This document shows, in pieces, positions 5,171 through 52,605 of a stretch of DNA of 64,000 nucleotides; positions within the stretch are counted from its first letter, which is position 1, and each line of letters begins with the position of its first letter. The stretch covers positions 143,447 through 207,446 of the forward strand of contig CAVXTC010000029.1 in assembly GCA_963764525.1 (NCBI GenBank). The letters are read 5' to 3'. Source of the DNA: an uncultured Pseudomonadota bacterium (GTDB taxonomy: Bacteria; Pseudomonadota; Alphaproteobacteria; Acetobacterales; Acetobacteraceae). Below the pieces are notes generated by a model, which was not told the origin of the DNA, did not search any database, and saw nothing but the letters and a program-made list of their open reading frames with translations. Both the position numbers and the translations under genes were made by a program.

Positions 5171-6240
5171 TGCACGGTCTCCTTGAGACGGGGATAGGTA
5201 GCAAGCGGGTTGTCGTGCCGCATCTTGCGGATCAGTCCCGGGTTGAGCCCGGGCGGCAGCGGGTCGTCGCCCTCGAACTGCCAGTGCGGATAGTCGGTGG
5301 CGAACAGCAGCATCTCGTCCGAACCGATCTGATTGATGATGCGGTCAAGTGATTTGGGGTCCGGCGGCGCGTCGATCGGCTGCGCGGTCAGGCGTATCTG
5401 GCGGCGGATGGTGTCGGCCGGGGATTCCTTTACCCAGGGCACTTCGGCGCGCACGCCGCGCCAGGTCTTGATGGCGCGCCAGATGAAGCCGGGCATCCAG
5501 GTGACGCCGGATTCGATCAGCACCACGCGCAAGGACGGGAATTTCACGAAGATGCCGTTGGAGATCAGGCTGAGAAGCTGATCCTCAAACGTTTGCTGGT
5601 GGGCGACGTAGTCGTGCAGGAAGTGGCTCGGCCAGCCGGTGGAGGTCGGCGTGTAGCGATACATGCTGCCGGCGTGCAGGCCGATCGGCAGGTTATGGCG
5701 GACCGCCGCTTCGTAGATCGGCCAGTAATAGCTGCGTCCCAGCATCATCTCGCACGCCACCGGCATCAGCACCTGCACGAAACGCTTGTCGGGCGCCTTG
5801 CGTTCGATTTCTTCGGCGGCGAGCAACGGGGCCTGCGCCGGCACCACGATGGAGGCGCGCAGGCGGGGTTCCTTGTCCAGCCAGTGTTCGGCGATCCAGT
5901 CGTTCACCGCCGAGCAGATCGCCGCGCCCATGGATTCGCTGACGGCGATCTGGCCGCCATAGATCGTGTTGCAGATGGCGACGCCAAGATTGAACGGATC
6001 GAGCGCCTGCGTGCGCATCGCGTCCAGGCTGGTGCCGGGCTTTCCTTTCGCCGGCCGCCAGTCGGCGCGGCAGGTGATCGGCGCACCTGGCGGGTAGCTT
6101 TGCAGGTCCAGCCCGTCGATCCCGCGGGCGACAAAGGATTCCTGCCAGAATTCATCCATGTAGGGCAGCAGGGTCTTCACGTCGGGCACCGATGGATGGA
6201 TATCGCAATCGATCACGCTGCTGCCGGCGAGGTCGTTCAT
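5167..6240 (-). CDS. amidohydrolase_2 paralogue 1
   Basis: VIDCDIHPS.., ..EPRLRASIVVP.., ..ATDYPHWQFEGDDP. ATG at 6238-6240 preceded by GGAGA. Confidence 0.85.
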   Translation of the reverse strand: MNDLAGSSVIDCDIHPSVPDVKTLLPYMDEFWQESFVARGIDGLDLQSYPPGAPITCRADWRPAKGKPGTSLDAMRTQALDPFNLGVAICNTIYGGQIAVSESMGAAICSAVNDWIAEHWLDKEPRLRASIVVPAQAPLLAAEEIERKAPDKRFVQVLMPVACEMMLGRSYYWPIYEAAVRHNLPIGLHAGSMYRYTPTSTGWPSHFLHDYVAHQQTFEDQLLSLISNGIFVKFPSLRVVLIESGVTWMPGFIWRAIKTWRGVRAEVPWVKESPADTIRRQIRLTAQPIDAPPDPKSLDRIINQIGSDEMLLFATDYPHWQFEGDDPLPPGLNPGLIRKMRHDNPLATYPRLKETVQ

Positions 6241-9868: not shown

Positions 9869-10720
9869 TCATCCCTTGACCGCCCCCGACGACAGCCCGG
9901 CCACAAGATGCCGTTGCGCGACGAACGAGAACAGGATCACCGGTAACACAACGAGCACGCCCGAGGCGGTCATCGCGCCCCAGTCCACCCCGACATCGCC
10001 GGAATAGCTGGCCATCAGCACCGGCAGCGTCCGGGTTGCATCGGTCGTCAGCACCGCAGCGAAGATGAAATCGTTCCACGCCAGCAGCAGGCACAGAATG
10101 GTGGCTGCCACCAATCCTGGGCGAACCAGCGGAAGCACCACGGAGCGGAAGGCGACGAACCGACTTGCCCCATCGACCCAGGCACTTTCCTCGAGCTCGC
10201 GCGGCAGGTCCTCAAAGAAGCCGCGCATGATCCAGACCACCAGCGGCAGGCTGAACGTGGTGTCGGCAAGCACCACGCTCAGTCGTGTCTGGATGATGCC
10301 GAGTTTGCTGAACAGCACGTACATCGGCACCAGCACCGCGATCGGCGGCAGCATGCGCATGACCAGAAGCGAGAAGAACAGCCAGTTCCGGCCGGCGAAG
10401 CGGAATCGGGCGAATGCGTAAGCGGCCGGCACCCCCACGCACAGCGACAACAGCACTGCCCAACCGGAAATCAGCAGACTGTTCACGAAAGCCGTCTGGA
10501 AGTCGCCGGTACCAAGGACAGCGACATAGTTCTCCAGCGTCGGCTTCCAGAAGAACAGCGGCGGATCGGCGAAGGTCTGGATGCGGGTCTTGAACGACAG
10601 GCCGACGATCCACAGCAACGGGAACAGGAAGAACACCAGCAGCGCACACAGCGCCACATACACCGCTGCGGCGAATCGCCACCGTGCGCGCCGGCCGGCG
10701 GACCGATACCGGGCCATCAA
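9869..10720 (-). CDS. carbohydrate ABC transporter permease (MalG-like)
   Basis: Six TM segments. EAA-type loop ..ESAWVDGASRFVAFRSVVLPLVRPG... Start overlaps the stop of the upstream permease (10717-10720). Confidence 0.85.
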   Translation of the reverse strand: MMARYRSAGRRARWRFAAAVYVALCALLVFFLFPLLWIVGLSFKTRIQTFADPPLFFWKPTLENYVAVLGTGDFQTAFVNSLLISGWAVLLSLCVGVPAAYAFARFRFAGRNWLFFSLLVMRMLPPIAVLVPMYVLFSKLGIIQTRLSVVLADTTFSLPLVVWIMRGFFEDLPRELEESAWVDGASRFVAFRSVVLPLVRPGLVAATILCLLLAWNDFIFAAVLTTDATRTLPVLMASYSGDVGVDWGAMTASGVLVVLPVILFSFVAQRHLVAGLSSGAVKG

Positions 10721-11718
10721 TAGGCGTCCCGCTGCCGGATCATCGCGATGAACGCACCGCAGACCACCAGCGCGATCGCCAGCATCACCCAGGACGCCGC
10801 GGCACCCAGGCTGAGGTCGAACTGCACGAACGAGGCCTGATAGGTGTACACCGACAGCAGCATGGTCGCATTCGCCGGGCCACCGCCGGTCATCACATAG
10901 ACGTTGTCGAAGGCGCGAAACTCAAAGATCGTGCGCAGCAGCAGTGCAACCAGAAGATACGGCCGCAGCAGCGGAAGCGTGACATGCCAGAAGCTTTGCA
11001 GCCGGCTGGCGCCGTCGATCGCCGCCGCTTCCAGCGGCTCGGACGGCAGCGACCGTAATCCCGCCAGCACCAGGATGCAGACGAACGGCGCATTCTGCCA
11101 CACGCTGGCAAGTCCGACCGCGATCAGCGCCAGCCCTGGCCGGCCGAGCCAGATGATGTGCTGGCCGAGGAAAAAGTCGATCACGCCGTGATCCGGATCC
11201 AGCAGCAACTTCCAGCATAGCGCCGCCACGATGGGCGTCATCATCATCGGCACGATCAGCGTGGTGCGGAAAAATCCGATCCAGGGCAGATCGACGTTCA
11301 GCAGCAGCGCTACGCCGAGCCCGAGCCCGAGCTCGGCGGCAACCGTGACTGCGGTGTAATTGAGCGTCAGCCACAGGCTGCTGATAAACACCGGGTCGGT
11401 GACCAAATTCTGATAATTCGCCAGCCCGGCGAGATGTCCGCCGAACAACGTCTCATCCGCGCTCCAACCCTCGAAGCTCAGATAGAGCGAGAAGACCAGC
11501 GGAAGCCCGAACACCAGGGCCATGGTCAGCGCGGTCGGCGACACGGCGAACCAGGCGAACCCGCGATCGAACCAGCGGCTCAGCCGTTCGCCCGAGGCGC
11601 GGGTCGGGATGTCACGCGACGGCTGCAACGGAAGTTCGGCAGCGCGCAGACCGATGCGGGAGGCCATGACGCGCTCAGCCCCGGGCGACGACGCGCGATG
11701 TCGGTCCGGTGGCATCAA
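10717..11718 (-). CDS. carbohydrate ABC transporter permease (MalF-like)
   Basis: EAA loop LEAAAIDGASRLQSFWHVTLPLLRP and multiple TM segments. The true start is possibly the internal MASRIG (about 11667). Confidence 0.8.
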   Translation of the reverse strand: MMPPDRHRASSPGAERVMASRIGLRAAELPLQPSRDIPTRASGERLSRWFDRGFAWFAVSPTALTMALVFGLPLVFSLYLSFEGWSADETLFGGHLAGLANYQNLVTDPVFISSLWLTLNYTAVTVAAELGLGLGVALLLNVDLPWIGFFRTTLIVPMMMTPIVAALCWKLLLDPDHGVIDFFLGQHIIWLGRPGLALIAVGLASVWQNAPFVCILVLAGLRSLPSEPLEAAAIDGASRLQSFWHVTLPLLRPYLLVALLLRTIFEFRAFDNVYVMTGGGPANATMLLSVYTYQASFVQFDLSLGAAASWVMLAIALVVCGAFIAMIRQRDAY

Positions 11719-11831
11719 CGGAAGCAGATGCGCAGATTGGTTGCACGCGGTTTCCTCCTTGCACGGGAAAGGCTAACCTCCGGCCCGATCGTCCGCAACT
11801 CTTGGCCGCCGGCCAGTTTCCCGGAATGGTT

Positions 11832-12848
11832 TCATGGGTCGAATGCCGGCATCACCTCATTAGCAAACAGCTGTACGGAGCGTTGCGCGTCGTCCGGCGA
11901 AATGTCCCCGAACGCAAAGCGGCACAGCACGTAATTGATGCCGCTGTCTTCCACGATCCGCCTGATGAAGTCGCGCACCTTTGTCGGAGTGCCCGCCACC
12001 GCCCGGCCGGACGCCTCGGCTTCATCGAATTCGGCCGGAAAGATCGCCTGCGGATTGGGCAGCTTGCCGTGCTTCAGCCAGAGCTTCAGGAAGCTGTCGC
12101 GCCACATCCGGTACGCCGGGCGCGCCACCTGCGCGGCCTCCCGGTCGGTTTCGGCCATCACCACGTGGCGGCTCACGCCGATCAACGGCAGTTCCTCCGC
12201 CTGGTGACCCAGCGCGGCCCATTCGGCGCGGTAGCGGTCGGTGATGCCGCGCATCAGCGCCGGCGGCAGGTTGGCCACGACATTCACCCGATGCCGCGCC
12301 GCCCAGGGCACCCCGTCGGCGCGGCCGATCCCGTACCACAGAGGCGGATGCGGCATCTGCACCGGCGCCAGCTCGATCGGCACGGCGTCGTAGTCGTAGT
12401 ACTTCCCGTGGAAGGTCAGTTCCCGCGTGGCCAGTCCGGCCAGCACGACCTGAAGAGCTTCCTGGTACATCGCCGGCGCGGCGTCGGCATCCAGCCCCCA
12501 ATATCCCAGTTCGATCGGCGAGATGCCGCGCCCGACCCCAAGCAGCAGCCGCCCGCCGCTGAGGTGGTCGAGCATGCAGATTTCATCGACCAGGCGCAGC
12601 GGATGATAGAGCGGCAGGGTATAGACCAGCGGACCGAAGCGCAGCCGCCTTGTGCGCTGCGCGACGGCGGCCAGCCAGACGCTCGGGGATGGGGCAAGGC
12701 CGAGCGGCGTCGCATGGTGCTCGGCCACGTGGTAGCCATAGAAGCCGGCGCGATCGTAGGCTTTCACCAGCCGCAGCCGGTCCTCGAAGAAGCCGGCCAG
12801 CTTGCCGCTGCGGTCCATGTGGTCGAACACGCCGAACTGCACCTGCAA
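11832..12848 (-). CDS. LLM-class (luciferase-like) flavin-dependent oxidoreductase
   Basis: (M)QFGVFDHMD..YHVAEHHATPLGLAPSP..LSGGRLLLGVGRGISPIE is typical of the bacterial luciferase family. TTG (12848) or GTG (12842) start after GGGAGGG. Confidence 0.85.
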   Translation of the reverse strand: MQVQFGVFDHMDRSGKLAGFFEDRLRLVKAYDRAGFYGYHVAEHHATPLGLAPSPSVWLAAVAQRTRRLRFGPLVYTLPLYHPLRLVDEICMLDHLSGGRLLLGVGRGISPIELGYWGLDADAAPAMYQEALQVVLAGLATRELTFHGKYYDYDAVPIELAPVQMPHPPLWYGIGRADGVPWAARHRVNVVANLPPALMRGITDRYRAEWAALGHQAEELPLIGVSRHVVMAETDREAAQVARPAYRMWRDSFLKLWLKHGKLPNPQAIFPAEFDEAEASGRAVAGTPTKVRDFIRRIVEDSGINYVLCRFAFGDISPDDAQRSVQLFANEVMPAFDP

Positions 12849-13042: not shown

Positions 13043-13303
13043 ATGGGCGTCGGAAGTATCATCGGATATGTCATAGCTGTGGCGCTGATCGCATGGGCGC
13101 TGTGGCGGCGCGCGTATTCGGTGCGGGCGCAACGGATCGCCGGTAACCTGCAACTGGGCGATAATTCCGGAACCATCAATCAGACTTACTCGGGGGCAGC
13201 CAGGGAGCAGGCGCAGCCTGATCGGGTCGGCTGGGCGATCCTGATCATCGGCGTGCTGGTCGCCGTGGCACAACTGGCGCACGACATATTCTGGGCCAAG
13301 TGA
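13043..13303 (+). CDS. small two-TM membrane protein (86 aa) with a G/N/Q-rich loop motif shared with the downstream STAND NTPase
   Basis: ATG at 13043. TM1 GSIIGYVIAVALIAWALW, loop ..RIAGNLQLGDNSGTINQTYSG.., TM2 VGWAILIIGVLVAVAQLAHDIFW. Stop TGA 13301-13303 overlaps the NTPase start (GTGATG). I recognise no family. Support comes from coupling and the shared motif. Confidence 0.55.
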   Translation: MGVGSIIGYVIAVALIAWALWRRAYSVRAQRIAGNLQLGDNSGTINQTYSGAAREQAQPDRVGWAILIIGVLVAVAQLAHDIFWAK

Positions 13304-15859
13304 TGCTGGGCTGGCTGTTCGGACGATCGAATCGCCTGCGCGCTCGTGATCTCGTTGGTAACGTCGTGGTGGGCGGCAACACCGGAATCATTTATCAGAT
13401 TTCCGGCGACGGCCCGCCACCGGCGCCGCCAACCCTGCACTGGGCCGAGGCGCTGCCGCCGCCGGGCTCGCCGTTCGAGCTGTTCAACCTGCTGTCCTGG
13501 AAGTTCCGGCTGGCGCGCGACCTGCTCGGGCGCGATGCGGAGAAACGTGAGCTGCTCGATTGGGCGCGGAACGGCCCGAGGGTCCGCATCCGGTTTCTTA
13601 TAGGCCCGGGCGGGTCGGGCAAGACGCGGCTGGCCGCGGAGTTCGCCGAAGCGCTGACCGGATGGCACGCGGGTTTCGTTCCGCTCGATACCGGGGCGAC
13701 GCTGCCGCTGTCGCGGCGGGGCCTGCTTGTCATTCTCGATTATCCGGAGGCCTGGCGCGAACCGGTCCGCTCACTGCTGCGAGAGGCCGCGCGCGCGGGC
13801 CAGCCGGCCGCGCCGATCCGGATTCTTCTGCTCAGCCGTCGGCCGCTGGCCGAGTGGCGGGAGGAAATCCTGAACTGCGGCGCTTCGACCCTGTGCGATG
13901 CACAGGAGCTCGGGATCGGCCCGCTGGATCGCGACGCAGCCGCGGATGTGTTCCACCGGGCGGTGGCTCGGCTGGCGGCGCATCGTCGGCTGGCAGCGCC
14001 GCGGATCGACAACAGCGCGATCGAAGCCTGGATCAACCAGAATCCCGCCCTGCATGGCCTGCCGCTGCTGACCATCGCCGCGGCAATTCATTTCGTGGAC
14101 CGGCCGGGACGCGCGTTGGGACTTGACGCCGCGGGGATTGTCGATGCGTTGGTCGAACGGGAGCGCCCGCAGCTTGACCGCACCGGTCGGTCGGTCGGGT
14201 TGGGTGAGCTTGGCGCGTCGCGGCTGGTTGGACTGTCGGCGCTGCGGGACGGCCTCGATGCGCCGGCGATCCGACGGCTGGTCGCGCCGGAGCTTGAACT
14301 CGGACTGCCGGATGCGGGCCGGGTTGTCAACGCCTTGCGGGATTCCGGCTGGTGGCACGCGGAGCGTCTGTCCGCGCCGGCCCCGGACATCGTTGCGGCC
14401 GAGTTGCTGCGCCAGGTGCTGGTCGCTGCGGAGGATCGCGGGCACGAATGGGTGTGGGCCTGCTTGTCCGATCCCGGCGCCGTGCAGATTGAGTTGCTCG
14501 ATCGCCGGATGCACGACATGGTGACGCTGCGTGGTCCGGACGAGCGGACTTTGCAGCGCCTCATGATTGCTGCGGTAACCGGCCAGGCTGCGCGCGCGTG
14601 GGCGTGGGCTGGCTTCTCTGATTCCGAAGTGGGTGGATTTCGGCTGAGCCCGGTTTCCGTAGCTATCGGCCACGAGCTGCTGGCGGCAACAGACGCTGCT
14701 GGGGAGGAGCGAGCGGGCATTCTCAACAACCTGTCGAATCATCTGAGCGAAGCCGGCGACGGCGCGGGCGCGCTGGCGGCGATCCGCGAGGCGGTGGAGA
14801 TCCGTCGCCGGCTGGCGCAGGAGACCCCGGCGCGCTTCGCCCCCGATCTCGCGACGAGCCTCAACAACCTGTCGCTCCGTCTGAGCGATGCCGGCGACGG
14901 CGCGGGCGCGCTGGCGGCGATCCGCGAGGCGGCGGACATCTATCGCCGGCTGGCGCAGGAGACCCCGGCGCGCTTCGCCCCCGATCTCGCGATGAGCCTC
15001 AACAACCTGTCGCTCCGTCTGAGCGATGCCGGCGACGGCGCGGGCGCGCTGGCGGCGATCCGCGAGGCGGTGGAGATCTGTCGCCGGCTGGCGCAGGACG
15101 ACCCCGGCGCGCTTCGCCCCCAATCTCGCGAGGAGCCTCAACAACCTGTCGCTCCGGTCTGAGCGATGCCGGCGACGGCGCGGGCGCGCTGGCGGCGATC
15201 CGCGAGGCGACGGACATCTATCGCCGGCTGGCGCAGGAGACCCCGGCGCGCTTCGCCCCCGATCTCGCGAGGAGCCTCAACAACCTATCGCTCAGTCTGA
15301 GCGATGCCGGCGACGGCGCGGGCGCGCTGGCGGCGATCCGCGAGGCGGTGGACACCTATCGCCGGCTGGCGCAGGAGACCCCGGCACGCTTCGCCCCCGA
15401 TCTCGCGACCAGCCTTAACACCCTGTCGGTCCATCTGAGCGATGCCAGCGACGGCGCGGGCGCGCTGGCGGCGATCCGCGAGGCGGTGGAGATCCGTCGC
15501 CGGCTGGCGCAGGAGACCCCGGCGCGCTTCGCCCCCGATCTCGCGACCAGCCTCAACAACCTGTCGCTCCGTCTGAGCGATGCCGGCGACGGCGCGGGCG
15601 CGCTGGCGGCGATCCGCGAGGCGGTGGAATCCGTCGCCGGCTGGCGCAGGAGACCCCGGCGCGCTTCGCCCCCGATCTCGCGACCAGCCTCAACAACCTG
15701 TCGCTCCGTCTGAGCGATGCCGGCGACGGCGCGGGCGCGCTGGCGGCGATCCGCGAGGCGGTGGAGATCCGTCGCCGGCTGGCGCAGGAGACCCCGGCGC
15801 GCTTCGCAGCGGCACTCGAGCGCAGCCTGGTTATCCTGTCTCGCCTGGACACGCCCTGA
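13300..15859 (+). CDS. STAND (NB-ARC-like) P-loop NTPase with C-terminal 46-aa TPR-type repeat array; no recognisable N-terminal effector domain; three frame shifts inside the repeats
   Basis: Walker A GPGGSGKTRLAAEF, Walker B LLVILDYPE, ILLLSRR, GxP-like LHGLPLLTIAAAI. Then eight LNNLSxxLSDAGDGAGALAAIREAxxxxRRLAQETPARFAPDLAxS units. Single-nt indels at ~15099 (+1), ~15157 (+1) and ~15628 (-1) link ORFs 13300..15162 and 15348..15713 and the final frame ending ..LVILSRLDTP-TGA (15857-15859). Confidence 0.8.
14722..15830 (+). repeat. eight near-identical 138-bp tandem coding repeats (TPR-type units of the STAND NTPase)
   Basis: Unit starts (ctcaacaacctg..) at 14722, 14860, 14998, 15137, 15276, 15414, 15552 and 15689. 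The period is 138 bp except where single-nt indels occur. Confidence 0.9.
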
Positions 15860-16119
15860 CGCGCCGTTCAACAGAATTGTATTTGCGAGAGAAACTGTTT
15901 CGGCGCGGATCGCCCATTCGTCATGCCCTGAACGCGCATGGGTCCTACAGAAAGAAATATGAACCGCAGAGGCGCGGAGGACGCGGAGAAGGGTCTCTGT
16001 GCCTCTGCGGCTCTGTGGTTGATCTTCTGCTTGCTTTATTGCTGCGTACGGGTCCCGAACCGAGGAGTTTTTGAGAACTTGTTTCGTATCTTAGCGACTT
16101 CATGCGGAGTCGCCGGGAC

Positions 16120-16212
16120 GCGCTGGGTTCCCGCTTCCGCGGGAATGACGGCGCTTCCGCGGGAATGACGGCACTTCCGCGGAATGATGGGCTCCCGCGG
16201 GAATGACGTTAC
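16120..16212. repeat. REP-like repeat cluster, family A
   Basis: ctgggttcccgcttccgcgggaatgacg followed by three degenerate tandem copies (gcgcttccgcgggaatgacg, gcacttccgcggaatgatg, ggctcccgcgggaatgacg). Confidence 0.7.
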
Positions 16213-16312: not shown

Positions 16313-17573
16313 ATGGAGCACCAGCGCACCAGCCGGGCGCAGCACATGCACGACAGCGTGCCGCCCGACTGGCAGCGGACCATGTGGGCCATGGTCGGCG
16401 TGCAGTTCATCATGACGATGTCGTTCACCATCCTCAGCCCGATCATGCCGCTGTTCCTGCCGCAACTCGGCGTGACCGGTGCCAGACAGATTTACCTTTG
16501 GGCCGGCATCCTGAACGGCACCACCTCGTTCGTCGCTGCGTTCGCTTCGCCGCTGTGGGGGCGGGTCGCCGACCAGCGCGGGCGCAAGCTGATGCTGCTG
16601 CGGTCCAGCTTCGCCATCGCGTTCTTCACCGTGTTGATGGGACTGTCGCCGAACGTCTGGGAGTTCTTCGGCGCGCGCGCGCTGATGGGCGCTTTCGCCG
16701 GATTCTCGGCGTCGGCGATCGCGCTGGTGGCCAGCCAGGTGCCGGAGCAGCGGCTGGGTTATGCGCTCGGGTGGCTCAGCACCGGGCAGTTGGTGGGCGG
16801 GCTGGTCGGGCCGGTGACTGGGCGGCGCGCTGGCGGATGCGACCGGCAGCTACCGCGTGCCGTTCTACTGCACCGCGGCGATCTGCTTCGGCGCCATGGG
16901 GCTGGCCTGGGCGTTCGTGCATGAGCAGTTCACCCCGCCCCCGCCGGGCCGGCGAAGCCGATCCATGGTGGCCAGCCTCGGGCTGCTGACCCGCTCGGCC
17001 GGGCTGCTGCCGCTGTTCTTCGTGCTGCTGCTGGCGCAGTTCGGCGTGCGCACGGTGCAGCCGGTGGTCACGCTGTTCGTCCAGCAACTGGTCGGCAACG
17101 GAGCCAGCCTCGCCACGCTGGCAGGGTTCGCGTTTTCGGTGACCGGGGTGGCCGACCTGGTCGCCTCGCCGTTCCTCGGCAAACGCAGCGACGTGATTGG
17201 CTATCGGCGTGTGTTGCTGATCTGCCTGTTCGGCGCGGCGATGATGAGCCTGCCGCAGGCGTTCGCACACAATTACTGGGAATTCGTCGCCGAGCGGTTC
17301 GGCGTCGGCTGCTTCATCGGCGGCATCCTGCCGACCGCCAACGCGCTGGTGGGGCGGCTGGTGCCGCGGGCGCAGCGCGGCACCGTGTATGGCATGACGG
17401 CCTCGGCGACGTTCCTCGGCAACTCGCTGGGGCCGCTGACCGGCGGGGGCGTGGCGGCGGCGCTGGGGCTGCGCTGGGTGTTCGTGGTCACCGCATTCCT
17501 GCTGCTGGCCAATCTGTGCTGGGTCTGGTTCAGCGTGGCGGAACTGCCCGCCGCGACTCCGCCGGCGAACTGA
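16313..17573 (+). CDS. MFS multidrug-efflux-type transporter (DHA1, MdtG-like), one frame shift
   Basis: ..SPLWGRVADQRGRKLMLLRS.. in ORF 16313..16924. The C-terminal half is in ORF 16857..17573. The frames join as ..LVGPVTG-GALADATGSYRVPFYCTAAI.. with a 1-nt shift near ~16820. Confidence 0.8.
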
Positions 17574-20930: not shown

Positions 20931-22319
20931 TTACTTCTTCTCAAACCGGTACGGGCTCGCGCTGGTGGTCAGCGGGTCCAGCGCCAGTCGGTGCTCCAGC
21001 GGCGGGAAGGCGCGGCTGCGGCAATCGGGGCGGTCGCATAGCCGGCACGACAGGCCGATCCCGACCCGCGCCCGCTCCAGGTCCACTCCGTCGGCATACA
21101 CCACATCGGCCGCATGGGTCAGCGCGCATCCCATCGCCACCACGTGCGTCGGCCGCGGCTCGCCCCACTCCAGCGGGCGTGTGACGGTGCGGGCGAAGCA
21201 CAGGAACGCGGCGCCATCGGGCAACTCGGCAATCTGCACCTGCATGTCGCCGGGACGCGCGAAGGCGGTATGCACGACCCAGCGCGGGCACGATCCGCCA
21301 TAGCGGGCGAACGGAAATCCGGCGGCGGAAAAGCGCTTGGAAACGTTACCGGCCGGATCGACGCGCAGAAAGAAGAACGGGACGCCGCGCGCGCCCGGCC
21401 GCTGCAGTGACGACAAGCGCTGGCACGCCTGCTCGAACGACACGCCGAAGTGCGCCGCCAACGCCTCCGCATCGTGCCGCATCGTGCTGGCCGCGGCCAG
21501 GAACGGCGCATACGGCATCAGCAAAGCGCCGGCCATATAGTTCAGCAGCCCGATGCGGATCAGCATCGCGGCCTCGGGCGACGACGGCGCCGCCACATGC
21601 AGCACCGCATCGACCGCGTCCCGCGCCTCCAGCAACGCCAACTGGAACGCCATCTGGAAGCCGCGGCTTTCGCGCGGCAGCGCCTCCGACAGCACCAGGC
21701 TGCGTGCCGCCGGGTCATAGCGGCGCAGCGCACCGGCCAGCTTTTGCACCGTCACAGTCAGCCCATGCGCGCGGCGCAGCCGCTCGGCGATCGCGTGGTT
21801 CATCTCGTGCGGCGACGCCGCCAGCTCCGCGGCCATCGCCTCGGCCGCCGCTTCCAGTTCGGGAAAATGGTTGGCACGCTCGTGGAAGAAATCACGCGCC
21901 TCTTCGTTCGGCAGCAGGATGCGGCGGCCGGAGGGCAGCGCGATGCCGCCCGCATCCTCCCGCGCGACGCGCCAGGCACGATACAGCGCCAGCACCGCCC
22001 GCGCCGCATTCGGCGCCCCGCCGGCGAGGTGCCCGACCTCGGCATCCGGCACCGCCTCGGCGCCCAGCAGCGGATCGGCGAACACTTCGCGCAGGCTGAT
22101 TTCGAGCTGCCGCTCCTCAGTGCCCGAAAGCGCGACCAGTTCGACCCGCAGCGTCTCGGTCAGCTTGATCAGCAGCGACGCCGTGACCGCGCGCTGGTCG
22201 TGCTCGATCAGGTTGAGATAGCTGGCGGAAATGCCCAGCCGGGTGGCGAGCGCCTGCTGCGTCAACCCCCGCTCGGCCCGCAGGCGCCGCACCGTGCGGC
22301 CGATCAGTGCGCGAGTCAT
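20931..22319 (-). CDS. XRE-family HTH regulator with ImmA/IrrE-type peptidase and DUF2083 domains (RamB/short-chain fatty acyl-CoA regulator-like)
   Basis: N-terminal HTH LRAERGLTQQALATRLGISASYLNLIEHDQR. About 460 aa. Divergently placed next to isocitrate lyase, as for RamB-type regulators. Confidence 0.8.
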   Translation of the reverse strand: MTRALIGRTVRRLRAERGLTQQALATRLGISASYLNLIEHDQRAVTASLLIKLTETLRVELVALSGTEERQLEISLREVFADPLLGAEAVPDAEVGHLAGGAPNAARAVLALYRAWRVAREDAGGIALPSGRRILLPNEEARDFFHERANHFPELEAAAEAMAAELAASPHEMNHAIAERLRRAHGLTVTVQKLAGALRRYDPAARSLVLSEALPRESRGFQMAFQLALLEARDAVDAVLHVAAPSSPEAAMLIRIGLLNYMAGALLMPYAPFLAAASTMRHDAEALAAHFGVSFEQACQRLSSLQRPGARGVPFFFLRVDPAGNVSKRFSAAGFPFARYGGSCPRWVVHTAFARPGDMQVQIAELPDGAAFLCFARTVTRPLEWGEPRPTHVVAMGCALTHAADVVYADGVDLERARVGIGLSCRLCDRPDCRSRAFPPLEHRLALDPLTTSASPYRFEKK

Positions 22320-35469: not shown

Positions 35470-36151
35470 GGTGGTCTCCTTCCCGGGGTGGGGTCCCCAG
35501 GTATGAGGCACGCCGGCGCCGATCTCAACACTGGCTGATGAATGGTTGGGGCGAGATGTATATCTGAGGCCGCCCGTTAACGGGGTGCATGATACCGACC
35601 CCCCTCCAAAATTCCCCACTTACCGAACTCGGAACGAAGTTCTCTGTCACGTCCACCGGTTGCAACCAGTGAATCCCCCGGGACTGGCATCGGATCTTTT
35701 ATCGGCGCTCTCGCCGGACTCCGCTCCTTAAGGGGACGAGTGTCGGGTTCGGCCCAGATCTCGTGCGACCGGTTGTCCCGCGGAATTGCTGATTGCTCTC
35801 ACGCGGGCCGGAGCAAGCGCCGGCTGCCGACGGGGCATGCCGGTCCGGAATCGGCTCGGGTCTGGGCTGCGGATGGGGACCGTTTCAGGCATCGACTCCC
35901 CGAATTGCTCGGACTTCCCGGGCTGCGACTGATGTCAACTGCGGCACCGCCCCGACTCCGCCGCCATGGTCTGATCTGGTTCCTTTGGTGACGATCGGTC
36001 GCGCCGGCTCTGGTGACGGCGTCTGTGGTGGACGATCGGCCGTGACCAGTAACGCGCTTTATGGAAAGTCGTCGTGCCGAGCTGGCCACGGTGTCGGTCC
36101 CGGATTAGTCTGGAGTCTTCGATCTCGTCGACCTTGCCAGGGAGTGAGACA

Positions 36152-37354
36152 ATGATCGCGAGAATACTGGGCGTCGTCGTTGTCCTGGCTTGCTCAGCCG
36201 GCAGCGCCATGGCCGCGTCCGCGCCAGCTCTCAAGCCGATCGATCCGGTCGCGCTTCAGGCCACCGTGGAACGGCTGGCCAAGGAGCTCCTGCTGCCGGG
36301 TGCCATGGTTCTCCTGAAAACTCCGCCGGGTGATTTCGTTTTTGGGTACGGCACAACCAAGCTCGGCATCACGAATCGACCACGTGCCAATACGCACTTC
36401 CGGGCCGCCTCGAATACCAAGACGATGACGGCCGCCGTGATCGTGCAACTGGCCCAGGAAGGAAAGTTACGCTTCGACGATCCGATCTCGAAGTATGTTC
36501 AAGACGTTCCAAACGGAGACAACATCACCATTGGCGAGCTGCTTAGAATGCGGAGCGGCCTTTATGATTACACAAACGCACCGGAACTTGCGGAAAGCCT
36601 TGATCATGACCCAGGAAAGGTTTGGACCTCGGAGGAGCTGCGCGGCATCGCGTTCAAACGCCCGCCGCTATTCGCTCCGGGCGCGGAATTCGACTATTGC
36701 AACGCTAACTATCTCCTGCTTGGTCTCGTTGCCGAAAAGGTTGAAGGCCAGCCTTTGGCAAGCATCTTTCAGAACCGTTTGTTCGGGCCTCTTGGCATGA
36801 AGAACACGTTGCTGCCGGCCAGCACGTCGAACGCCATCCCCGAGCCTTACTCACATGGTTACCTTTACGGCAGTTCCTCATACGCCTTGGTGGATGCGCC
36901 TTATCCAACCGATCTTCAGGCTGCGGCCAAGGCGGGAACGCTCAAGCCCAATGACGATACATCGCAGAATCCCTCCTACGCCTTTGCGGCGGGTGGGGTC
37001 ATCTCTACCGCGGATGACCTGGCGACCTGGATGCGCGCGCTGGTCGGGGGCAAGGTTTTCAATGCCGACTATCAGCGCCAATGGATGGAAAGCCCCAAAG
37101 CCCAGGATCCAAGTAATCCTAAAGGTCAACGGTATGGCTATGGTATCTCTCTGATCACCTTCGGGCCGAACAAAGTGTATTTTCACGGTGGCGAGATGCC
37201 TGGCTACAACTCCTTCATGGGCTACGATCCAGATAATGATGTCACGCTGATCGTGTGGACCAGCCTGACCCTGTCGCTTGATGGCCTGCCAACCGCCAAC
37301 ACCTTGATGCTAAAGATACTGGACCAAATTTATACGGTATCACCGCGTCAGTAG
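36152..37354 (+). CDS. serine hydrolase (beta-lactamase/DD-peptidase family), secreted
   Basis: Signal peptide MIARILGVVVVLACSAGSAMA. SxxK active-site motif in RAASNTKTMTAAVIVQL. This is where GC begins to drop. Confidence 0.8.
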   Translation: MIARILGVVVVLACSAGSAMAASAPALKPIDPVALQATVERLAKELLLPGAMVLLKTPPGDFVFGYGTTKLGITNRPRANTHFRAASNTKTMTAAVIVQLAQEGKLRFDDPISKYVQDVPNGDNITIGELLRMRSGLYDYTNAPELAESLDHDPGKVWTSEELRGIAFKRPPLFAPGAEFDYCNANYLLLGLVAEKVEGQPLASIFQNRLFGPLGMKNTLLPASTSNAIPEPYSHGYLYGSSSYALVDAPYPTDLQAAAKAGTLKPNDDTSQNPSYAFAAGGVISTADDLATWMRALVGGKVFNADYQRQWMESPKAQDPSNPKGQRYGYGISLITFGPNKVYFHGGEMPGYNSFMGYDPDNDVTLIVWTSLTLSLDGLPTANTLMLKILDQIYTVSPRQ

Positions 37355-37361
37355 AGGCGCC

Positions 37362-37440
37362 ATGCGGCGTGAACTCAGCGACCACGAATGGAGTGTCATC
37401 AGGCCGATGCTCCCGGCCACGCCCCCGGGACTCGGACGAG
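37362..37440 (+). mobile_element. IS5-family (IS427-group-like) transposase N-terminal remnant
   Basis: MRRELSDHEWSVIRPMLPA.P.G.. matches the characteristic N-terminus M(R)RxELSDxEWxxIxPLLPxKPRG of these transposases. It breaks off after about 25 codons. Confidence 0.45.
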
Positions 37441-37453
37441 GGCGTGCACAAGC

Positions 37454-37609
37454 CTTGCAGACCGTGTGAAAACACGACCGTCGCCTGGCGCGACGAAACA
37501 TTGATTTGCCGCGCCGGGGGCGCACGAACGGAAGATTTAAAACTGGACCCCACGAAGCAGCGCAAATGCTCGTTGCCGTTACGGTCCGGAGTTTCCACAC
37601 GGTCTGCTT
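37454..37609. repeat. 156-bp MITE-like element, copy A (terminal inverted repeats gcagaccgtgtgaaaac / gtttccacacggtctgc)
   Basis: The ends cttgcagaccgtgtgaaaacacg .. ttgccgttacggtccggagtttccacacggtctgctt are nearly identical to copy B at 39479-39634. The interiors have diverged. Confidence 0.6.
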
Positions 37610-37658
37610 AATTTATGCGCAGACCCATCTGCGAAGACGAGTGCCGTCATTGCGGCGA

Positions 37659-38578
37659 TCAAAACACAACGTTCCAATCCTGCTTCATGCTCACGACGGT
37701 GATGCCGTAGTCCTGAGCCTTGTCGAGCGCCTCGGACAACGGGCTCAACCGGAACTCTCGGTCGTAGGCCGCCTCCCGGGCTGCGTCGTCATGGTGGAGA
37801 AGCAACGCGAGCCGAGGCCCTGAGCCGGACTTCGTGTAACGCATCATGGCGAGATCACCGTCGGAATTGCCGAACGCCAATAGTGGTCTACGGCCGATAT
37901 GCAGGCCGATGTTCAGTGCCTTCACGTTCCCGATCGCCAAAGCTGTTGAGCTCCGGCAGCTTCACGAGCGAAACCCGGTTGTCTCTCAAATCGTAGCGCA
38001 GTTTCACACTGGAACCGATCACCTGCTCGCGTGGGATGCCGTAAACTTCCTCCGCGAACGCGCGCATGAAGTCCACGCCGCCTGCCGACACGATATAGGT
38101 CTTGAAGCCGTTCTCCCGTAAGTATGCGAGCAGCTCGACCTGCGGCCGATTAGGTGCATTCCTTGAACAGCCGGCCGAACTTGGGATGCCTCGCCGTCGC
38201 TAACCATCCGCTCGCAGCTTGCTCAAAGTCCTCATCGGTTATGCCCGCATGGGTGGCGAAAGCCAGCTCGAACAGCGCCTGTTTGCCGAGTCCAAAAAGC
38301 GTATTGTAATCGTGTTCGAGCACGGCCTTGAATGGTTGACGCTCGCTCATTGTCGGGTCCTTGCCCGACAACTGCTTCACGCGATCAAAGGCGAAAAAGA
38401 ACTGTATCTGAAGCGGCTGCTTGCACCAGAGTGTCCCGTCGTTGTCAAACGTGGCAATGCGCCCGGCTGGCGGCACATATTCGGTGCCTCCTTGCTTTGT
38501 CACACGCGCGACAAAGTCGAGGATCGCGGATTTCGCCGCGCTGTCATTCCACGAGAGGAGTGACTGACCATCCTGCAT
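37659..38578 (-). pseudogene. HAD-superfamily hydrolase (PF12710-like phosphatase), two frame shifts
   Basis: Motif I ..ATFDNDGTLW.. (ORF 38150..39028, from MQDGQS at 38578). Then ..IVSAGGVDFMRAFAEEVYGIP.. (37888..38091) and ..LLAFGNSDGDLAMM.. (37659..37940). Shifts occur near ~38150 and ~37920. Confidence 0.7.
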
Positions 38579-38696
38579 TGATGCCTCCAGTCCAGAGGTG
38601 GCTCGAAGCCTCCACAGAAAGGAGTGGTTTGACACCAAGTCAAGAAGGCCGCTAGTGCCAACCACCCCTACGTCGACACCCAAGGGAGGACGGAAC

Positions 38697-39296
38697 ATGC
38701 ATGACCACTTGCAGGTCTTTATGGCCATCGGGCTCGGGCTAGGGTTGGCGGTCGCGGTCGTCCAAGGCGCGGTTGCACAACAGAATCCGGTGACTGCGAT
38801 CGACATCGCGCTCGAAGCCGACGCAACGATGGTCCAGCACGCGATGGCCGCCAACGCTCGCCTCCGAAAGTCCTTCCCGAAGGGCTTTGCTCTGGATGAG
38901 ACGCACCACCCGCACATCTCCATGTTGCAGCAGTTCGTTCGCACGGACGACCTGGACAAGGTATATGCGGCGGCGAACGCAGTTCTGGCCAAAGAGAAGC
39001 CCACGGCATGGACGCTGAAGGCGATCAAGTATTACTACATCCCGGCTTCGCCGATCGGCGTCGCAGGGATAGTCATCGAACCGACTGAAGAGCTGCATCG
39101 GCTGCAAGATGAACTCATTGCCGCCGTCAAACCCTACGTTGTGAGGACCGGAACCCCGGCGGCGTTCTTCAGCAACGAGGGCGGACGCGACATTCAAGGA
39201 GCCTTGATCAGCTACGTCGCCAATTTCGTCACAGACGCGGCAGGCAAGCGTTTCAATCCACACGTGACGATCGGTGTCGAAACGGAAGCGTATTGA
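38697..39296 (+). CDS. 2H phosphoesterase superfamily protein (LigT/2'-5' RNA ligase-like) with signal peptide
   Basis: GGGAGGA then ATG 38697. Signal-like MHDHLQVFMAIGLGLGLAVAVVQGAVA. Two Hx(T/S) motifs, HPHISM and NPHVTIG. Confidence 0.7.
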   Translation: MHDHLQVFMAIGLGLGLAVAVVQGAVAQQNPVTAIDIALEADATMVQHAMAANARLRKSFPKGFALDETHHPHISMLQQFVRTDDLDKVYAAANAVLAKEKPTAWTLKAIKYYYIPASPIGVAGIVIEPTEELHRLQDELIAAVKPYVVRTGTPAAFFSNEGGRDIQGALISYVANFVTDAAGKRFNPHVTIGVETEAY

Positions 39297-39478
39297 ACAA
39301 GGTGTTGGCGGAGCCGTTCGCGTCGTTCACGTTCTCGCCGGCTGGCGCATCAGTCTATCAGCTTGGCAGCTTTGGCACGGCTCGAAAGGAACTCAGGGCG
39401 TTGACTCTGACGCCCTGAGGACGGCGGCAGACTCGCTGCGTCTCCATTACGGGCATATCTTCCGGAACATCCGAAAGT

Positions 39479-39634
39479 CTTGCAGACTGTGTGAAAACAC
39501 GGAAGCGCACGGAGAGCGCGCAAGATAGATTCACCGAAGATTGTTCCGTGGCATGTGTATGTCCTGCGCGAATGCCGGCGGATTTTAAAATTACTCATTG
39601 CCGTTACGGTCCGGAGTTTTCACACAGTCTGCTT
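39479..39634. repeat. 156-bp MITE-like element, copy B
   Basis: cttgcagactgtgtgaaaacacgg .. ttgccgttacggtccggagttttcacacagtctgctt. Same length and orientation as copy A. Confidence 0.6.
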
Positions 39635-39672
39635 GATTTGTGCCATCGCGGTGGCTGGGGGTAGGATACGGC

Positions 39673-40209
39673 GTGGAAATCGAAACGCCGCGCACTCGGC
39701 TTCGCTGCTGGGAGCAAACTGACCGGGACGCATTCGCTGCCATGCACGCGGACCCGGAGGTGATGCATGATTACGGTGGCCCGATCAGTCGGAGAGAAAG
39801 CGACGCAAAGTTTGATCGCTATGTGGCGACATATCATCAACATGGCTTTTGTCGTTGGGCCGTCAGCGGTCGAGACGGTGCTTTTCTCGGCTACGTTGGC
39901 ATTATGCCCTCGCGACCGGGCCATCCACTCGGTTCGCACTTCGGAATTGGTTGGCGTTTGGTTCGGCGGGCTTGGGGTTACGGGTATGCCACCGAAGCTG
40001 CAAGGGCGGCATTGGATGACGCCTTCTGCCGCGTCAGACTGGCCGAAGTGCTCGCCTACACGTCCCCCGAGAACCTAAGGTCGCGAGCGGTAATGGGCCG
40101 ATTGCAATTGCGCCGCGATCCGTCGCGCGATTTCACGGCAGACTACGACCCCATCAAGGGCTGGCAGGGGATGGTCTGGGTCGCACTCCCGACCGCCCAA
40201 AAGTCTTGA
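39673..40209 (+). CDS. GNAT family N-acetyltransferase (RimJ/RimL-like)
   Basis: (V)EIETPRTRLRCWEQTDRDAFAAMHADPEVM..IGWRLVRRAWGYGYATEAARAALDDAF... GTG start at 39673 is preferred over 39640, which lies inside the repeat. Confidence 0.75.
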   Translation: MEIETPRTRLRCWEQTDRDAFAAMHADPEVMHDYGGPISRRESDAKFDRYVATYHQHGFCRWAVSGRDGAFLGYVGIMPSRPGHPLGSHFGIGWRLVRRAWGYGYATEAARAALDDAFCRVRLAEVLAYTSPENLRSRAVMGRLQLRRDPSRDFTADYDPIKGWQGMVWVALPTAQKS

Positions 40210-48714: not shown

Positions 48715-49083
48715 GACCTCTCCCTTTGGATGGCTTCAGCCCCGGCCCGCATGGGCCACACCCCGAAGGGGATGTTGGGCATAGCCGGGGCGGTGCCCCG
48801 GCAGGGAAGCGGCGGCGTTAAGCACGGATCGGGGTGGGGTGCAACTGGGGGGTCGAGCGGTGGCGCGGGTTAACGTCGGGAGGGTGGAAAGCGGCCCGCC
48901 GATACGAGAGGACCATCGTAGGAACGGGACGTTGGCCGCATGGGCGGGCTTCAGCGGTGACAGCTGCAGCGGGCCGGATCGACCGTTGCCGACGCTTTCA
49001 AGAAAATCGAAAACTTCCTGTCGGACTGACAAGCTCTCGCCCGTCCTCGGGGTATGGATCGACAATTCATGGGAGCAAGGGTC

Positions 49084-49304
<221 letters not shown>

Positions 49305-49321
49305 AGAGGGAAGGAAACCGC

Positions 49322-49687
49322 ATGACCACGAACGATACCTATCTTGCCGTATTTCTCGGCAGCAAGACAAGTTCGCGCATGAAGGCGTGGATGGCGCTTC
49401 CCGAAGCTGAAAGGCGCGCCAAGGAACAGGAGGGCATGGCCGCCTGGAAAGCCTGGGTCGAAAAGCACCAAGCGGCGGTATCCGCCATGGGCGGGCCGCT
49501 CGGCAAGACGAAGAAAATCACCGAACGCGGCATCGAGGACGTGAGCAACGAGATGGGCGCCTTCATGGTCGTGCGAGCGAACTCGCACGAGGCGGCCGCC
49601 AAGCTGTTCGAGAAGCATCCGCATTTCACGATCTTTCCGGGCGAGTCCGTGGAGGTCATGCCCGTTCTGCCGATACCAGGCGCCTGA
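49322..49687 (+). CDS. conserved hypothetical protein (small alpha/beta, YCII/Dabb-like by appearance)
   Basis: AAGGAA then ATG 49322. MTTNDTYLAVFLGSK..MGGPLGKTKKI..FMVVRANSHEAAAKLFEKHPHF... I do not recognise a definite family. Confidence 0.55.
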   Translation: MTTNDTYLAVFLGSKTSSRMKAWMALPEAERRAKEQEGMAAWKAWVEKHQAAVSAMGGPLGKTKKITERGIEDVSNEMGAFMVVRANSHEAAAKLFEKHPHFTIFPGESVEVMPVLPIPGA

Positions 49688-49731
49688 TCGGCGGCAAGGT
49701 CCGTTCCGTCAATTCATAAGGATAAACGAAC

Positions 49732-50173
49732 ATGCCCAACACCGTACGCTTGCACCGCGTTCTGGCAACCAGCCCAGAGAAAGTCTATCGCGCGTTCCTC
49801 GAGGCGGACGCGCTGGCGAAATGGCTTCCGCCCAACGGCTTTGCCTGCACTGTGCATCATCTGGAACCGAAAGTCGGCGGCCGTTCAAAATGTCCTTCCG
49901 GAACTTCACAACGGGCAAAAGCCACGTGTTTGGAGGCGAATATGTTGAGCTCGTTCCGGGCGAACGCCTGCGCTACACGGACAAATTCGACGATCCCAAC
50001 CTGCCCGGCGAGATTCAGGTGACGGTGGCGATGAAGAAATATCGGTCGGCACCGAGCTGGACATCGTGCAGGCAGGCCTGCCGGACGTCATTCCACCCGA
50101 AGCCTGTTATCTCGGTTGGCAGGAGTCGCTGCGAAACCTGGCAAGGCTCGTCGAGCCCGAGATCAATCAATAA
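49732..50173 (+). pseudogene. SRPBCC/AHSA1 (Aha1-like START fold) protein, two frame shifts
   Basis: MPNTVRLHRVLATSPEKVYRAFLEADALAKWLPPNGF.CTVHHLEPKVGG | FKMSFRNFTTGKSHVFGGEYVELVPGERLRYTDKFDDPNLPGEIQVTVAMKK | SVGTELDIVQAGLPDVIPPEACYLGWQESLRNLARLVEPEINQ. Shifts near ~49885 and ~50040. Confidence 0.7.
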
Positions 50174-50517
50174 CACATTCATAGCGAGCAAAAGGCCGCC
50201 GGGATCGAATTGCTTGATCGACTTCCTAGTCTCCGAGCGAGGTTTCGCGTCTCATGCCCCCGGGGACCCTGTTGAGAAGATCGACATGCCGCGACGCCCC
50301 TATGACCGGGGCGGCTGTGGGCTGCACCAGCACGCGGGCGATTCTACCTCGGCGCCTTCGACTTGTATGTCCGATTTGGCGCAGCCATGACAGCACGCTG
50401 AATGGCAGGAGTGGGTCGGGAGACGACCCGTTCCGGCCATTCCCGTCAGAAGCCAGTTTGGCTTACCCATTGAGTTCGGCCCTCATTTCCTGTGTCTGGA
50501 GCGAAATCATGATATGC

Positions 50518-51003: not shown

Positions 51004-51261
51004 CAGACTTCATGATAAGGCCGGTGGCAGTTGGCACGGGGGCTAAACGTGTCATGCCTCGTCCGGCCACGCCGGCACAGCAGGGAGAAGCGGCTCCGAT
51101 TCAGGGCGCGGGCGCGCCGCGATGCGTCGCGATTTGCCCGATGTTGCCCGAGGGCCTCTCGCACGGTCGCGCGTCGGTTACTGTAAGGTATATCTGGTAT
51201 GCTCCTCATTACAGCGGCGCCTGCCTCAAGCGCCCGCCGCAGATCCGTTCAGGAGCGTTCA

Positions 51262-52602: not shown

Positions 52603-52605
52603 TCC

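Follow-up and report, generated by a model that had tools for sequence, protein, structure and literature searches.

A motif shared between a STAND/TPR NTPase and an overlapping two-helix membrane mini-protein suggests an NLR-type two-gene module in an uncultured Acetobacteraceae bacterium

We analyzed a stretch of 64,000 nt from an uncultured bacterium of the Acetobacteraceae (assembly GCA_963764525.1, contig CAVXTC010000029.1, positions 143,447 to 207,446 of the forward strand), here called the window, and in it two overlapping genes on the + strand. The first, recognized as an open reading frame (ORF) and by its translation, encodes an 86-amino-acid (aa) protein with two transmembrane (TM) helices, which we call the mini-protein (13043..13303). 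The second, which begins at 13300, encodes an NTPase of the STAND class (signal transduction ATPases with numerous domains) that ends in an array of tetratricopeptide repeats (TPRs). Our analysis favors, by a modest degree, the view that the two genes form a module of the NOD-like receptor (NLR) type, in which a motif-bearing STAND/TPR receptor would act through amyloid-like templating on a TM-motif-TM membrane effector, with an abortive-infection-type outcome.

The two proteins are linked by a 25-residue motif, which reads VRAQRIAGNLQLGDNSGTINQTYSG at residues 27-51 of the mini-protein (13121..13195, +, located by BLOSUM62 comparison with the N-terminus of the NTPase) and RLRARDLVGNVVVGGNTGIIYQISG at residues 12-36 of the NTPase (13333..13407, +), where it is conserved across the N-termini of the family, with G19, G24, and G28 invariant among homologues, and is predicted to form a beta-hairpin. 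The ungapped BLOSUM62 score between the mini-protein loop and the NTPase N-terminus was 50, while 5,000 shuffles gave 19 ± 3.7 and never exceeded 46. The composition of the motif (G 17.8%, V 14%, N 9.4%, I 9.4%, Q 5.1%, L 2.7%, K 0.3%, and P 0.3%) matches what has been described for bacterial amyloid signaling sequences (BASS), in which Q, N, G, V, and I are overrepresented and K, P, and L underrepresented (Dyrka et al. 2020, 10.1101/2020.01.06.895854).

The pairing of the two genes is conserved. Homologues of the receptor come mostly from metagenome-assembled genomes (MAGs) and isolates of Alphaproteobacteria (Stellaceae, Rhodopila, Acetobacteraceae, and Rhodospirillaceae), with a few from Bryobacterales and Vicinamibacterales, and the closest relatives belong to Acetobacteraceae and to unclassified proteobacterial MAGs. 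The pair is kept in about 15 independent loci, and its gene neighbors vary by locus. A TM-motif-TM gene lies directly upstream of the receptor gene in 13 further loci or contigs. This order, with an overlap of 1-4 nt or a gap of up to ~35 nt, is seen in L001/L003/L004, L002, L005, L006, L007, L009, L012, L028, and L083-L090, together with the contigs of P0030 and P0032. In L008, the mini-gene is downstream and convergent on the other strand, yet it carries a matching motif.

The motifs of the two partners also vary together. Across 15 pairs, the similarity between cognate partners summed to 873, compared with 621 ± 43 for permuted partners, and none of 100,000 permutations reached 873; once the two divergent motif types were left out, the cognate sum was 700 against 592 ± 31, a value reached in 63 of 100,000 permutations. 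Chance likeness between the motifs was rejected by these shuffle and permutation tests. Single loci display the same pattern, as GI replaces GN in both partners of L009, TMN[FY] replaces xQxx in both partners of L008, and both partners of L012 carry a separate motif, GTLNQGN.xAGGD[VI]SI. Independent divergence from an ancestral pair does not predict such co-variation, which indicates selection for matching or, alternatively, repeated conversion.

The mini-gene and the receptor gene behave and duplicate as one unit. One MAG, MFD09603 (CAVTQY010000001.1), contains two copies of the module (L003 and L004, at ~0.53 and 2.9 Mb) that are 97.7% identical from ~90 nt upstream of the mini-gene through the end of the receptor gene, and the two receptors differ by exactly one 46-aa TPR unit (719 versus 765 aa). 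No further candidate effector was conserved in the examined neighborhoods of the module loci. In the window, the mini-protein gene overlaps the NTPase start (TGATG / GTGA), and the two genes are translationally coupled. An NCBI protein, P0029, is identical to the 86-aa product. The original prediction, made from the window sequence alone, had described a tight coupling to a membrane mini-protein and a self-contained two-gene module, and both points hold: a two-TM ORF of 86 aa overlaps the NTPase start, ~15 loci carry the pair in varied contexts, and the duplicated unit consists of exactly these two genes.

A further argument comes from relatives in the same clade of nucleotide-binding oligomerization domains (NODs), where other domains occupy the place that the short motif has in the window receptor. 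These are a DUF676/alpha-beta-hydrolase in L014 (136-1014) and L023 (5053-6000), a TIR_2 domain in L015 (1170-1682), and a DUF4062 domain in L025 (5221-6000), while L011 is a relative with a fused TM helix. That this clade trades the motif for hydrolase or TIR effectors argues for a motif that stands in for the connection to an effector. Alternation between all-in-one proteins and two genes with a shared motif is a hallmark of NLR amyloid signaling (Dyrka et al., 10.1101/2020.01.06.895854). Partners of other shapes were found as well: L010 has a one-TM partner (5504-5890) whose matching motif is C-terminal, and L024 a 149-aa helical partner (5489-5938) with the N-terminus MVDPVTIGALAA..., which looks Bell-like and has no Pfam match. 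The original prediction had also suggested that the output of the NTPase is delivered in trans, and the conserved pair, the co-variation of the motifs, and the effector domains that replace the motif support delivery through the mini-protein, which we propose to be the trans effector of the receptor.

One homologue of the mini-protein carries a motif of a different kind. P0089 (L089 5001-5264) is a two-TM protein with VQVGDHNVQTNT in its loop, which matches the BASS3/RHIM-like core at 11 of 12 positions and scores 20.4 bits on the BASS3 model, where the shuffle maximum is 8. Its partner (L089 5264-7453) is a STAND protein of a different NOD type, with GMGGVGKT, DUF7779, and TPR_12, and starts with AQVGNENVQINN. 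The two-TM scaffold is therefore modular in both its motif and its receptor. Those BASS motifs that were tested, BASS3 included, form prion amyloids and cross-seed (10.1101/2020.01.06.895854), and P0089, by its sequence match, connects the two-TM scaffold with a family of motifs for which amyloid formation has been shown by experiment.

The mini-protein itself is built from a TM helix, the shared motif, a short low-complexity linker, and a second TM helix. The first helix (residues ~3-22, 13049..13108, +, from Kyte-Doolittle hydropathy and AlphaFold) is followed by an Arg-rich stretch, RR..R..R, and the second (residues ~62-84, 13226..13294, +, from hydropathy and conservation) reads PDRVAW.IGI.GVL.AAAQLAHD; both reach 1.7-2.2 in Kyte-Doolittle windows of 19 residues. 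The loop from residue 22 to 61 has 6 K/R against 3 D/E, and from this excess the positive-inside rule predicts that it lies in the cytoplasm. AlphaFold, working from four aligned sequences, returned a model with a mean confidence (pLDDT) of 62.7 and two helices, one of them at residues 3-36. No Bell-like helical bundle was found in the protein, in which the motif sits between the TM helices (residues 27-51 of 86). A profile search of 1.84 billion representative proteins yielded 59 mini-protein clusters, nearly all of 80-100 aa, with the consensus TM1 - RRS.S[VL][RK]AR[DN]I.GN[VI][IV]VGD.SG..xQTY - linker - [PG]DRVAW.IGI.GVL.AAAQLAHD; two other matches to the profile, P0077 and P0085, were rejected as they proved on inspection to be long repetitive proteins. 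The second TM helix is the best-conserved part of the family: among 56 representatives, D60, W64, and I66 are conserved at 95-98% and G70, A74, Q77, and D81 at 73-84%. The family had no match in Pfam, PADLOC, or NCBIfam.

The receptor gene had been predicted to span 13300-15859. A large + strand gene does begin at 13300, but it is not one open frame: three single-base insertions or deletions (indels) interrupt it and the frame closes at 15162, so that the ORF present in the window (13300..15162, +) encodes 620 aa from the GTG at 13300, or 619 aa from the ATG at 13303, and ends at an in-frame stop made by a frameshift. We ran the Pfam profile search on the repaired protein of 852 aa. About 70 residues had been said to precede the nucleotide-binding domain, and Pfam AAA_16 indeed starts at residue 75; what precedes it is the 25-aa motif (12-36) and a proline-rich linker, GPPPAPP (residues 38-44, 13411..13431, +), which stands between motif and NOD and has the consensus G.GPPP.PP in homologues. 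The Walker A sequence GPGGSGKT, predicted near residue 103, is at residues 102-109 (13603-13626, +). The "NB-ARC" label found no support in profile searches, as PF00931 gave no match at E≤1 in the repaired protein or in seven relatives.

The NOD (13522..14709, +) was delimited from Pfam AAA_16, AlphaFold, Foldseek, and sequence motifs. AAA_16 covers residues 75-227 (E 4e-8, 34.3 bits against a curated cut-off of 32.6) and is the sole P-loop match. Besides Walker A, the domain has a Walker B sequence, LLVILDYPE (residues 142-150, 13723-13749, +), and, by inspection, ILLLSRR (173-181, 13816-13842, +), HGLPLL (252-257, 14053-14070, +), and RRMHDM (402-407, 14503-14520, +), the last ~300 aa past the P-loop; these three are suggestive of the RNBS-B, GLPL, and MHD motifs of NB-ARC proteins. 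G101-K107, D146, and E149 do not vary among 14 homologues, nor do L253, P254, L255, R401, and D405 in the receptor family. We modeled residues 1-473 with AlphaFold from 14 homologues, and the model reached a pLDDT of 86.7 and a predicted template-modeling (TM) score of 0.88. It leaves residues 1-12 disordered, forms a hairpin at 17-32 (strands 17-24 and 28-32, pLDDT ~65-69), and continues through an extended Pro-rich stretch into an alpha/beta NTPase domain and helical domains, with no globular N-terminal domain. The top Foldseek matches in the PDB were NRC3/NRC2, which are helper NLRs of plants, MalT, ORC/Cdc6 (ORC2), Apaf-1, and Avs5 (EfAvs5), with E-values of 2e-6 to 1e-4 and modest TM scores of 0.3-0.37, which are low because the domain orientations differ. 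A PDB profile search with the NOD alignment returned generic P-loop matches only (ZAR1 E 0.66). We class the domain as a divergent NB-ARC-like STAND NOD whose assignment to the Pfam NB-ARC family is unconfirmed.

The predicted C-terminal TPRs were confirmed by Pfam, which found eight TPR_10 stretches (E 1.5e-44) and TPR_12 as well. Eight units of 138 nt (46 aa) stand in tandem (14722..15825, +) and are ~94% identical; the program TRF gave a period of 138, 7.9 copies, and 94% matches. The units differ chiefly at codons 6, 7, 25-28, and 45, and the ratio of nonsynonymous to synonymous polymorphism (pN/pS) among them is 1.34. Internally conserved repeats with hypervariable sites are the pattern of fungal and bacterial NLR sensors (10.1101/2020.01.06.895854), and the window units fit this pattern of rapidly diversifying NLR repeats; the array is our proposed ligand sensor.

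As to an effector fused to the NTPase itself, the original prediction had recognized none, and the searches agree. Pfam found no domain in the repaired protein beyond TPR_10, TPR_12, and AAA_16; no nuclease, protease, TIR, SIR2, TM, or helix-turn-helix (HTH) domain was detected by Pfam, PADLOC, or NCBIfam; and residues 1-110 contained no known domain by Pfam, NCBIfam, or AlphaFold. NCBIfam gave nothing significant for either protein of the module. The best PADLOC matches of the NTPase, mad8 (E 0.005, 14 bits) and IetA (E 0.02), cover the P-loop only, and the mini-protein had none. Among distant relatives in actinobacteria (Actinoplanes, Streptomyces), two STAND/TPR proteins, L065 5680-8766 and L038 5383-9531, open with a different short motif, NVTAVNGFAYGAINADIHVFG and VRAVAGFAYGAVGADI, respectively; two others, L030 and L066, have N-terminal trypsin-like domains. 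Weak, sub-threshold matches to Pfam nSTAND_NTPase5 were seen in these distant relatives.

In the mechanism that we propose, a ligand, most likely a protein of a phage or other invader, would bind the hypervariable TPR array and cause NTP-dependent oligomerization of the receptor. The oligomer would gather the N-terminal motifs into a cross-beta (beta-arch) nucleus, and this nucleus would template the homologous motif in the loop of the mini-protein. The two-TM hairpins would then polymerize or cluster and compromise the inner membrane, with abortive-infection-type death or arrest of the cell. We infer the templating by the shared motif from the analogy with described amyloid signaling pairs, and the membrane damage, the nature of the ligand, and the role of the pair in defense are likewise inferred.

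Several points weigh against this mechanism. Hidden Markov models (HMMs) of BASS1-9, built from the published sets (PMC8086366, supplementary file 2), scored the two window motifs at 1.4-4.7 bits and members of the family at no more than 13 bits. The reference values were shuffle maxima of 5-11, cross-family maxima of 6-11.5, and own-family scores of 14-80 bits, the last in-sample, and the motif of L012 leans to BASS4 (8 bits). As the scores of the window and its family lie within the shuffle and cross-family range, the motif does not appear to be a member of BASS1-9, and the profile scores (0-13 bits) place it outside these families. The motif on the effector side is internal, while described amyloid signaling motifs are C-terminal tails of their effectors, and AlphaFold gives the loop of the mini-protein low confidence and predicts no strands there. 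Two TM helices per cross-beta layer of 4.8 angstroms are awkward to pack and cannot stack in register, so some other arrangement would have to be allowed by the linker together with the conserved second helix, and the true structure may differ from a plain in-register fibril. The role in defense is argued by analogy only, because PADLOC, a check that the original prediction had called for, found no known defense family at the locus and the neighbors are housekeeping genes. Finally, the receptor gene in the window is frameshifted three times.

These frameshifts bear directly on whether this copy works. The segment 13300-15859 is 2,560 nt long, which is no multiple of 3; the NTPase frame ends at the stop 15160-15162 after 620 aa, and later in-frame stops recur every 138 nt. 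Alignment to the consensus of the 138-nt repeat located the three indels, all on the + strand: an extra C at 15099 (GGA[C]GACCCC, consensus GGAGACCCC), an extra G at 15156 (CTCC[G]GTCTG, consensus CTCCGTCTG), and one G missing between 15628 and 15629 (GTGGA-ATCC, consensus GTGGAGATCC). The first of them shifts the frame and thereby creates the stop at 15160-15162. The rest of the coding sequence (15163..15859, +), read by three-frame translation, holds TPR units 4-8 and the C-terminal cap ...SLVILSRLDTP. With all three indels repaired, the NTPase has 852 aa and its stop is at 15857-15859, and the repaired cap (…ALERSLVILSRLDTP) agrees with that of intact homologues (ALERSLAVLARLERP in P0002). 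With three single-base indels in its TPR array, this copy is either mis-assembled or inactivated.

We consider an assembly artifact the likely cause. If the indels were real instead, the receptor would be truncated after three TPR units and non-functional, and the module in this genome would be a decaying pseudogene, even though the family as a whole may still function as proposed; we regard this as the less likely cause, though it is the strongest of the competing explanations. In its favor, the three indels are independent and none lies in a long homopolymer, and the public gene call, P0001, is the identical truncated product of 619 aa with its start at ATG 13303. The TPR units past the first frameshift are, on the other hand, conserved like those before it, and the pattern at the protein level is kept. 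The neighboring gene for a transporter of the major facilitator superfamily (MFS) can be read both ways, since it is likewise split by a frameshift, into overlapping + strand ORFs in different frames (16313-16924 and 16857-17573) that both match MFS_1 and jointly make up ~420 aa. A second broken gene fits decay, but a frameshift in an unrelated neighbor, outside any repeat, suggests a general indel error of the contig. Because of the high GC content of the DNA, a frame plot of G+C at third codon positions had too much noise to locate other frameshifts in the window, and the Pfam-confirmed split of the MFS gene is the only one that we kept.

Frameshifts within the array also recur in other metagenome assemblies, which argues against decay. 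Changes of frame within near-identical TPR arrays were seen in L083 (~6892), in L085 (~7507 and ~8039), in L086, and between P0004 and P0005, which are apparently the same gene differing by an array frameshift; in L083, tblastn showed the receptor to be present but frameshifted. This recurrence suggests that the consensus of such arrays is systematically miscalled or, with less likelihood, that the arrays are truly prone to indels. An insertion sequence of the IS3 family (HTH_Tnp_1 and rve, 10297-11603) lies inside the TPR array of the L002 receptor, and the array resumes at 11606-12184. The disruption of this homologue shows that loss of such genes does occur, which adds some weight to the pseudogene explanation.

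It is rather improbable, more so than decay, that the motif mediates a non-amyloid docking, in which a stoichiometric strand-to-strand contact (beta-augmentation) would tether the NTPase to the mini-protein as an anchor, adaptor, or inhibitor, and the output would be produced by membrane-located NTPase oligomers or by another partner. Several of the observations above are compatible with docking: the AlphaFold model of the receptor motif as a plain hairpin, the position of the motif outside BASS1-9, the internal loop position, which is without precedent among amyloid signaling motifs, and the peak of conservation in TM helix 2, which suggests that the protein does something specific in the membrane and more than cluster there passively. 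An anchor or adaptor does not sit well, however, with a NOD clade in which genuine effectors of death or immunity, such as a hydrolase or TIR domain, take the place of the same motif, nor with L089, where the two-TM scaffold bears the BASS3/RHIM-like core of an experimentally amyloid-forming family. The composition bias of the motif agrees with that of amyloid signaling motifs, and the neighborhoods conserve no other candidate effector from which the output could come.

The remaining alternative, a STAND transcription regulator of the LuxR/AfsR/MalT kind that has lost its DNA-binding domain or has it on another gene and to which the mini-protein is unrelated, is very improbable and was rejected: TPR-containing STANDs do include regulators (the MalT and AfsR families) and MalT is among the top structural matches, but no HTH, LuxR/AfsR-type, BTAD, or other DNA-binding domain was found anywhere in the repaired 852-aa protein or its homologues, the neighborhoods have no conserved regulator gene, the partner that stays linked and co-varies is the membrane mini-protein, and relatives bear hydrolase or TIR effectors.

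Within the amyloid-like templating that we favor, a more tentative proposal, slightly short of evenly balanced, is that the 86-aa protein represents a new class of amyloid-gated effector: a two-TM hairpin that sits constitutively in the membrane and presents an amyloid signaling motif in a loop on the cytoplasmic side. An activated NLR would then act as the template and polymerize TM hairpins within the membrane itself, whereas Bell, HeLo, and Bab proteins have a soluble helical domain that is freed to attack the membrane. Such a scaffold would carry at least three types of motif (GN.V.VGD.SG..xQ, GTLNQGN..AGGD.SI, and the BASS3/RHIM-like type), would pair with at least two NOD clades, and would have unicellular soil Alphaproteobacteria and Acidobacteria as hosts.

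The closest described systems are the Bell/NLR pairs, in which BASS1-10, motifs of ~25 aa, are common to the C-terminus of a Bell protein and the N-terminus of an adjacent NB-ARC or NACHT protein with TPR or WD repeats, in genes that are mostly collinear and have tiny or negative intergenic distances (10.1101/2020.01.06.895854). The window pair is alike in having a small effector gene directly upstream of, collinear with, and overlapping the gene for a NOD and TPR receptor; a ~25-aa motif at the receptor N-terminus that is repeated in the effector; a G/N/Q/V/I-rich and K/P/L-poor composition; all-in-one relatives with a hydrolase or TIR domain; and TPR repeats that are highly conserved internally. 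It differs in its effector, where a two-TM hairpin whose loop carries the motif takes the place of the Bell helical bundle and its C-terminal motif, and in its hosts, here mostly Alphaproteobacteria and some Acidobacteria, while BASS is found in filamentous Actinobacteria or Cyanobacteria. The window NOD, unlike those of BASS pairs, is not matched by the Pfam NB-ARC or NACHT models. By analogy, the pair would fit a BASS-type NLR amyloid signaling pair, minus the Bell or C-terminal-motif effector and the membership in BASS1-9.

The Bab/Agp system (BASS11), whose amyloid signaling drives antiphage abortive infection in Escherichia coli (Ibarlosa et al. 2024, 10.1101/2024.11.07.622273), likewise consists of two genes in a unicellular proteobacterium, with the N-terminal motif of the sensor converting the motif of a small membrane-targeting effector. 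Bab, in contrast, is soluble and moves to the membrane; it is a helical "Babybell" domain and bears its motif at the C-terminus. The effector here is predicted to be embedded in the membrane constitutively. The fungal NWD2/HET-S systems (HELLP, HELLF) follow the same logic, in which a receptor oligomerizes and then serves as the amyloid template for a second, pore-forming protein, and they have no sequence relationship to the window pair. HET-S is a eukaryotic protein with a HeLo domain, and its TM segment is exposed only after the amyloid transition. The Avs and bNACHT proteins share the tripartite order of effector, STAND NTPase, and repeat sensor, and EfAvs5 is among the Foldseek matches, but their effector is fused and here there is none, and the PADLOC models gave no significant match. 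A further parallel lies in the small two-TM effectors of abortive infection, such as the SLATT-type, CBASS, and Pycsar TM effectors, in which a cytoplasmic sensor brings about death through a small membrane-spanning protein. Their activation comes from nucleotide signals or from direct fusion and does not use a motif that sensor and effector have in common. Kaur et al. 2020 (PMC7159879) name SLATT.

Signaling from an NLR to an effector through amyloid is established in fungi, and the described effectors are composed of a soluble domain and a C-terminal motif (10.1101/2020.01.06.895854). For bacteria, it had been predicted in filamentous Actinobacteria and Cyanobacteria (10.1101/2020.01.06.895854), with Bab/Agp as the one experimentally validated case (10.1101/2024.11.07.622273). 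What was known before is thus the signaling of an NLR to a separate effector through a short motif, and the membrane partner appears to be of a kind without earlier description: a search of papers on BASS, on Bab/Agp, on the detection of amyloid motifs, and on NTP-dependent conflict systems, and of a 2026 survey of bacterial STAND receptors, turned up no TM-loop-TM effector. The missing effector domain of the NTPase is less anomalous than the original prediction implied, because signaling from an NLR to a separate effector via a short motif is known from BASS. If our reading is true, a two-TM family with the motif in its loop would widen the repertoire of effectors and motifs, and the mechanism would reach common Proteobacteria and Acidobacteria of soil. 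A system of 86 aa and the N-terminal peptide of a receptor would also be tiny and tractable for the question of how a cross-beta transition leads to membrane damage, and it would explain in concrete terms the "effector-less" STAND/TPR proteins, annotated by pipelines merely as "tetratricopeptide repeat protein."

The genes on either side of the module are those expected from the original prediction, a luciferase-like monooxygenase (11832-12848, −) and the MFS transporter (16313-17573, +), the latter split in two frames. Scans for promoter and terminator consensus sequences around the module gave nothing beyond chance, and Rfam and tRNA scans of the window were both empty, so that no tRNA-type island boundary was found. 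An imperfect inverted repeat of 19 nt (15961-15979 / 15995-16013) lies ~100 nt past the NTPase stop, and four tandem units of ~20 nt with the palindromic core TTCCGCGGGAA occupy 16132-16208, between the NTPase and MFS genes. Farther away, a gene of the short-chain fatty acyl-CoA regulator type (20931-22319, −) combines HTH_3, Peptidase_M78 (ImmA/IrrE-like), and ScfRs domains and appears unrelated to the module. Two stretches of the window, 36000-40000 and 49000-53000, have a G+C content of 0.53-0.59, compared with ~0.68 elsewhere, and may be horizontally acquired segments.

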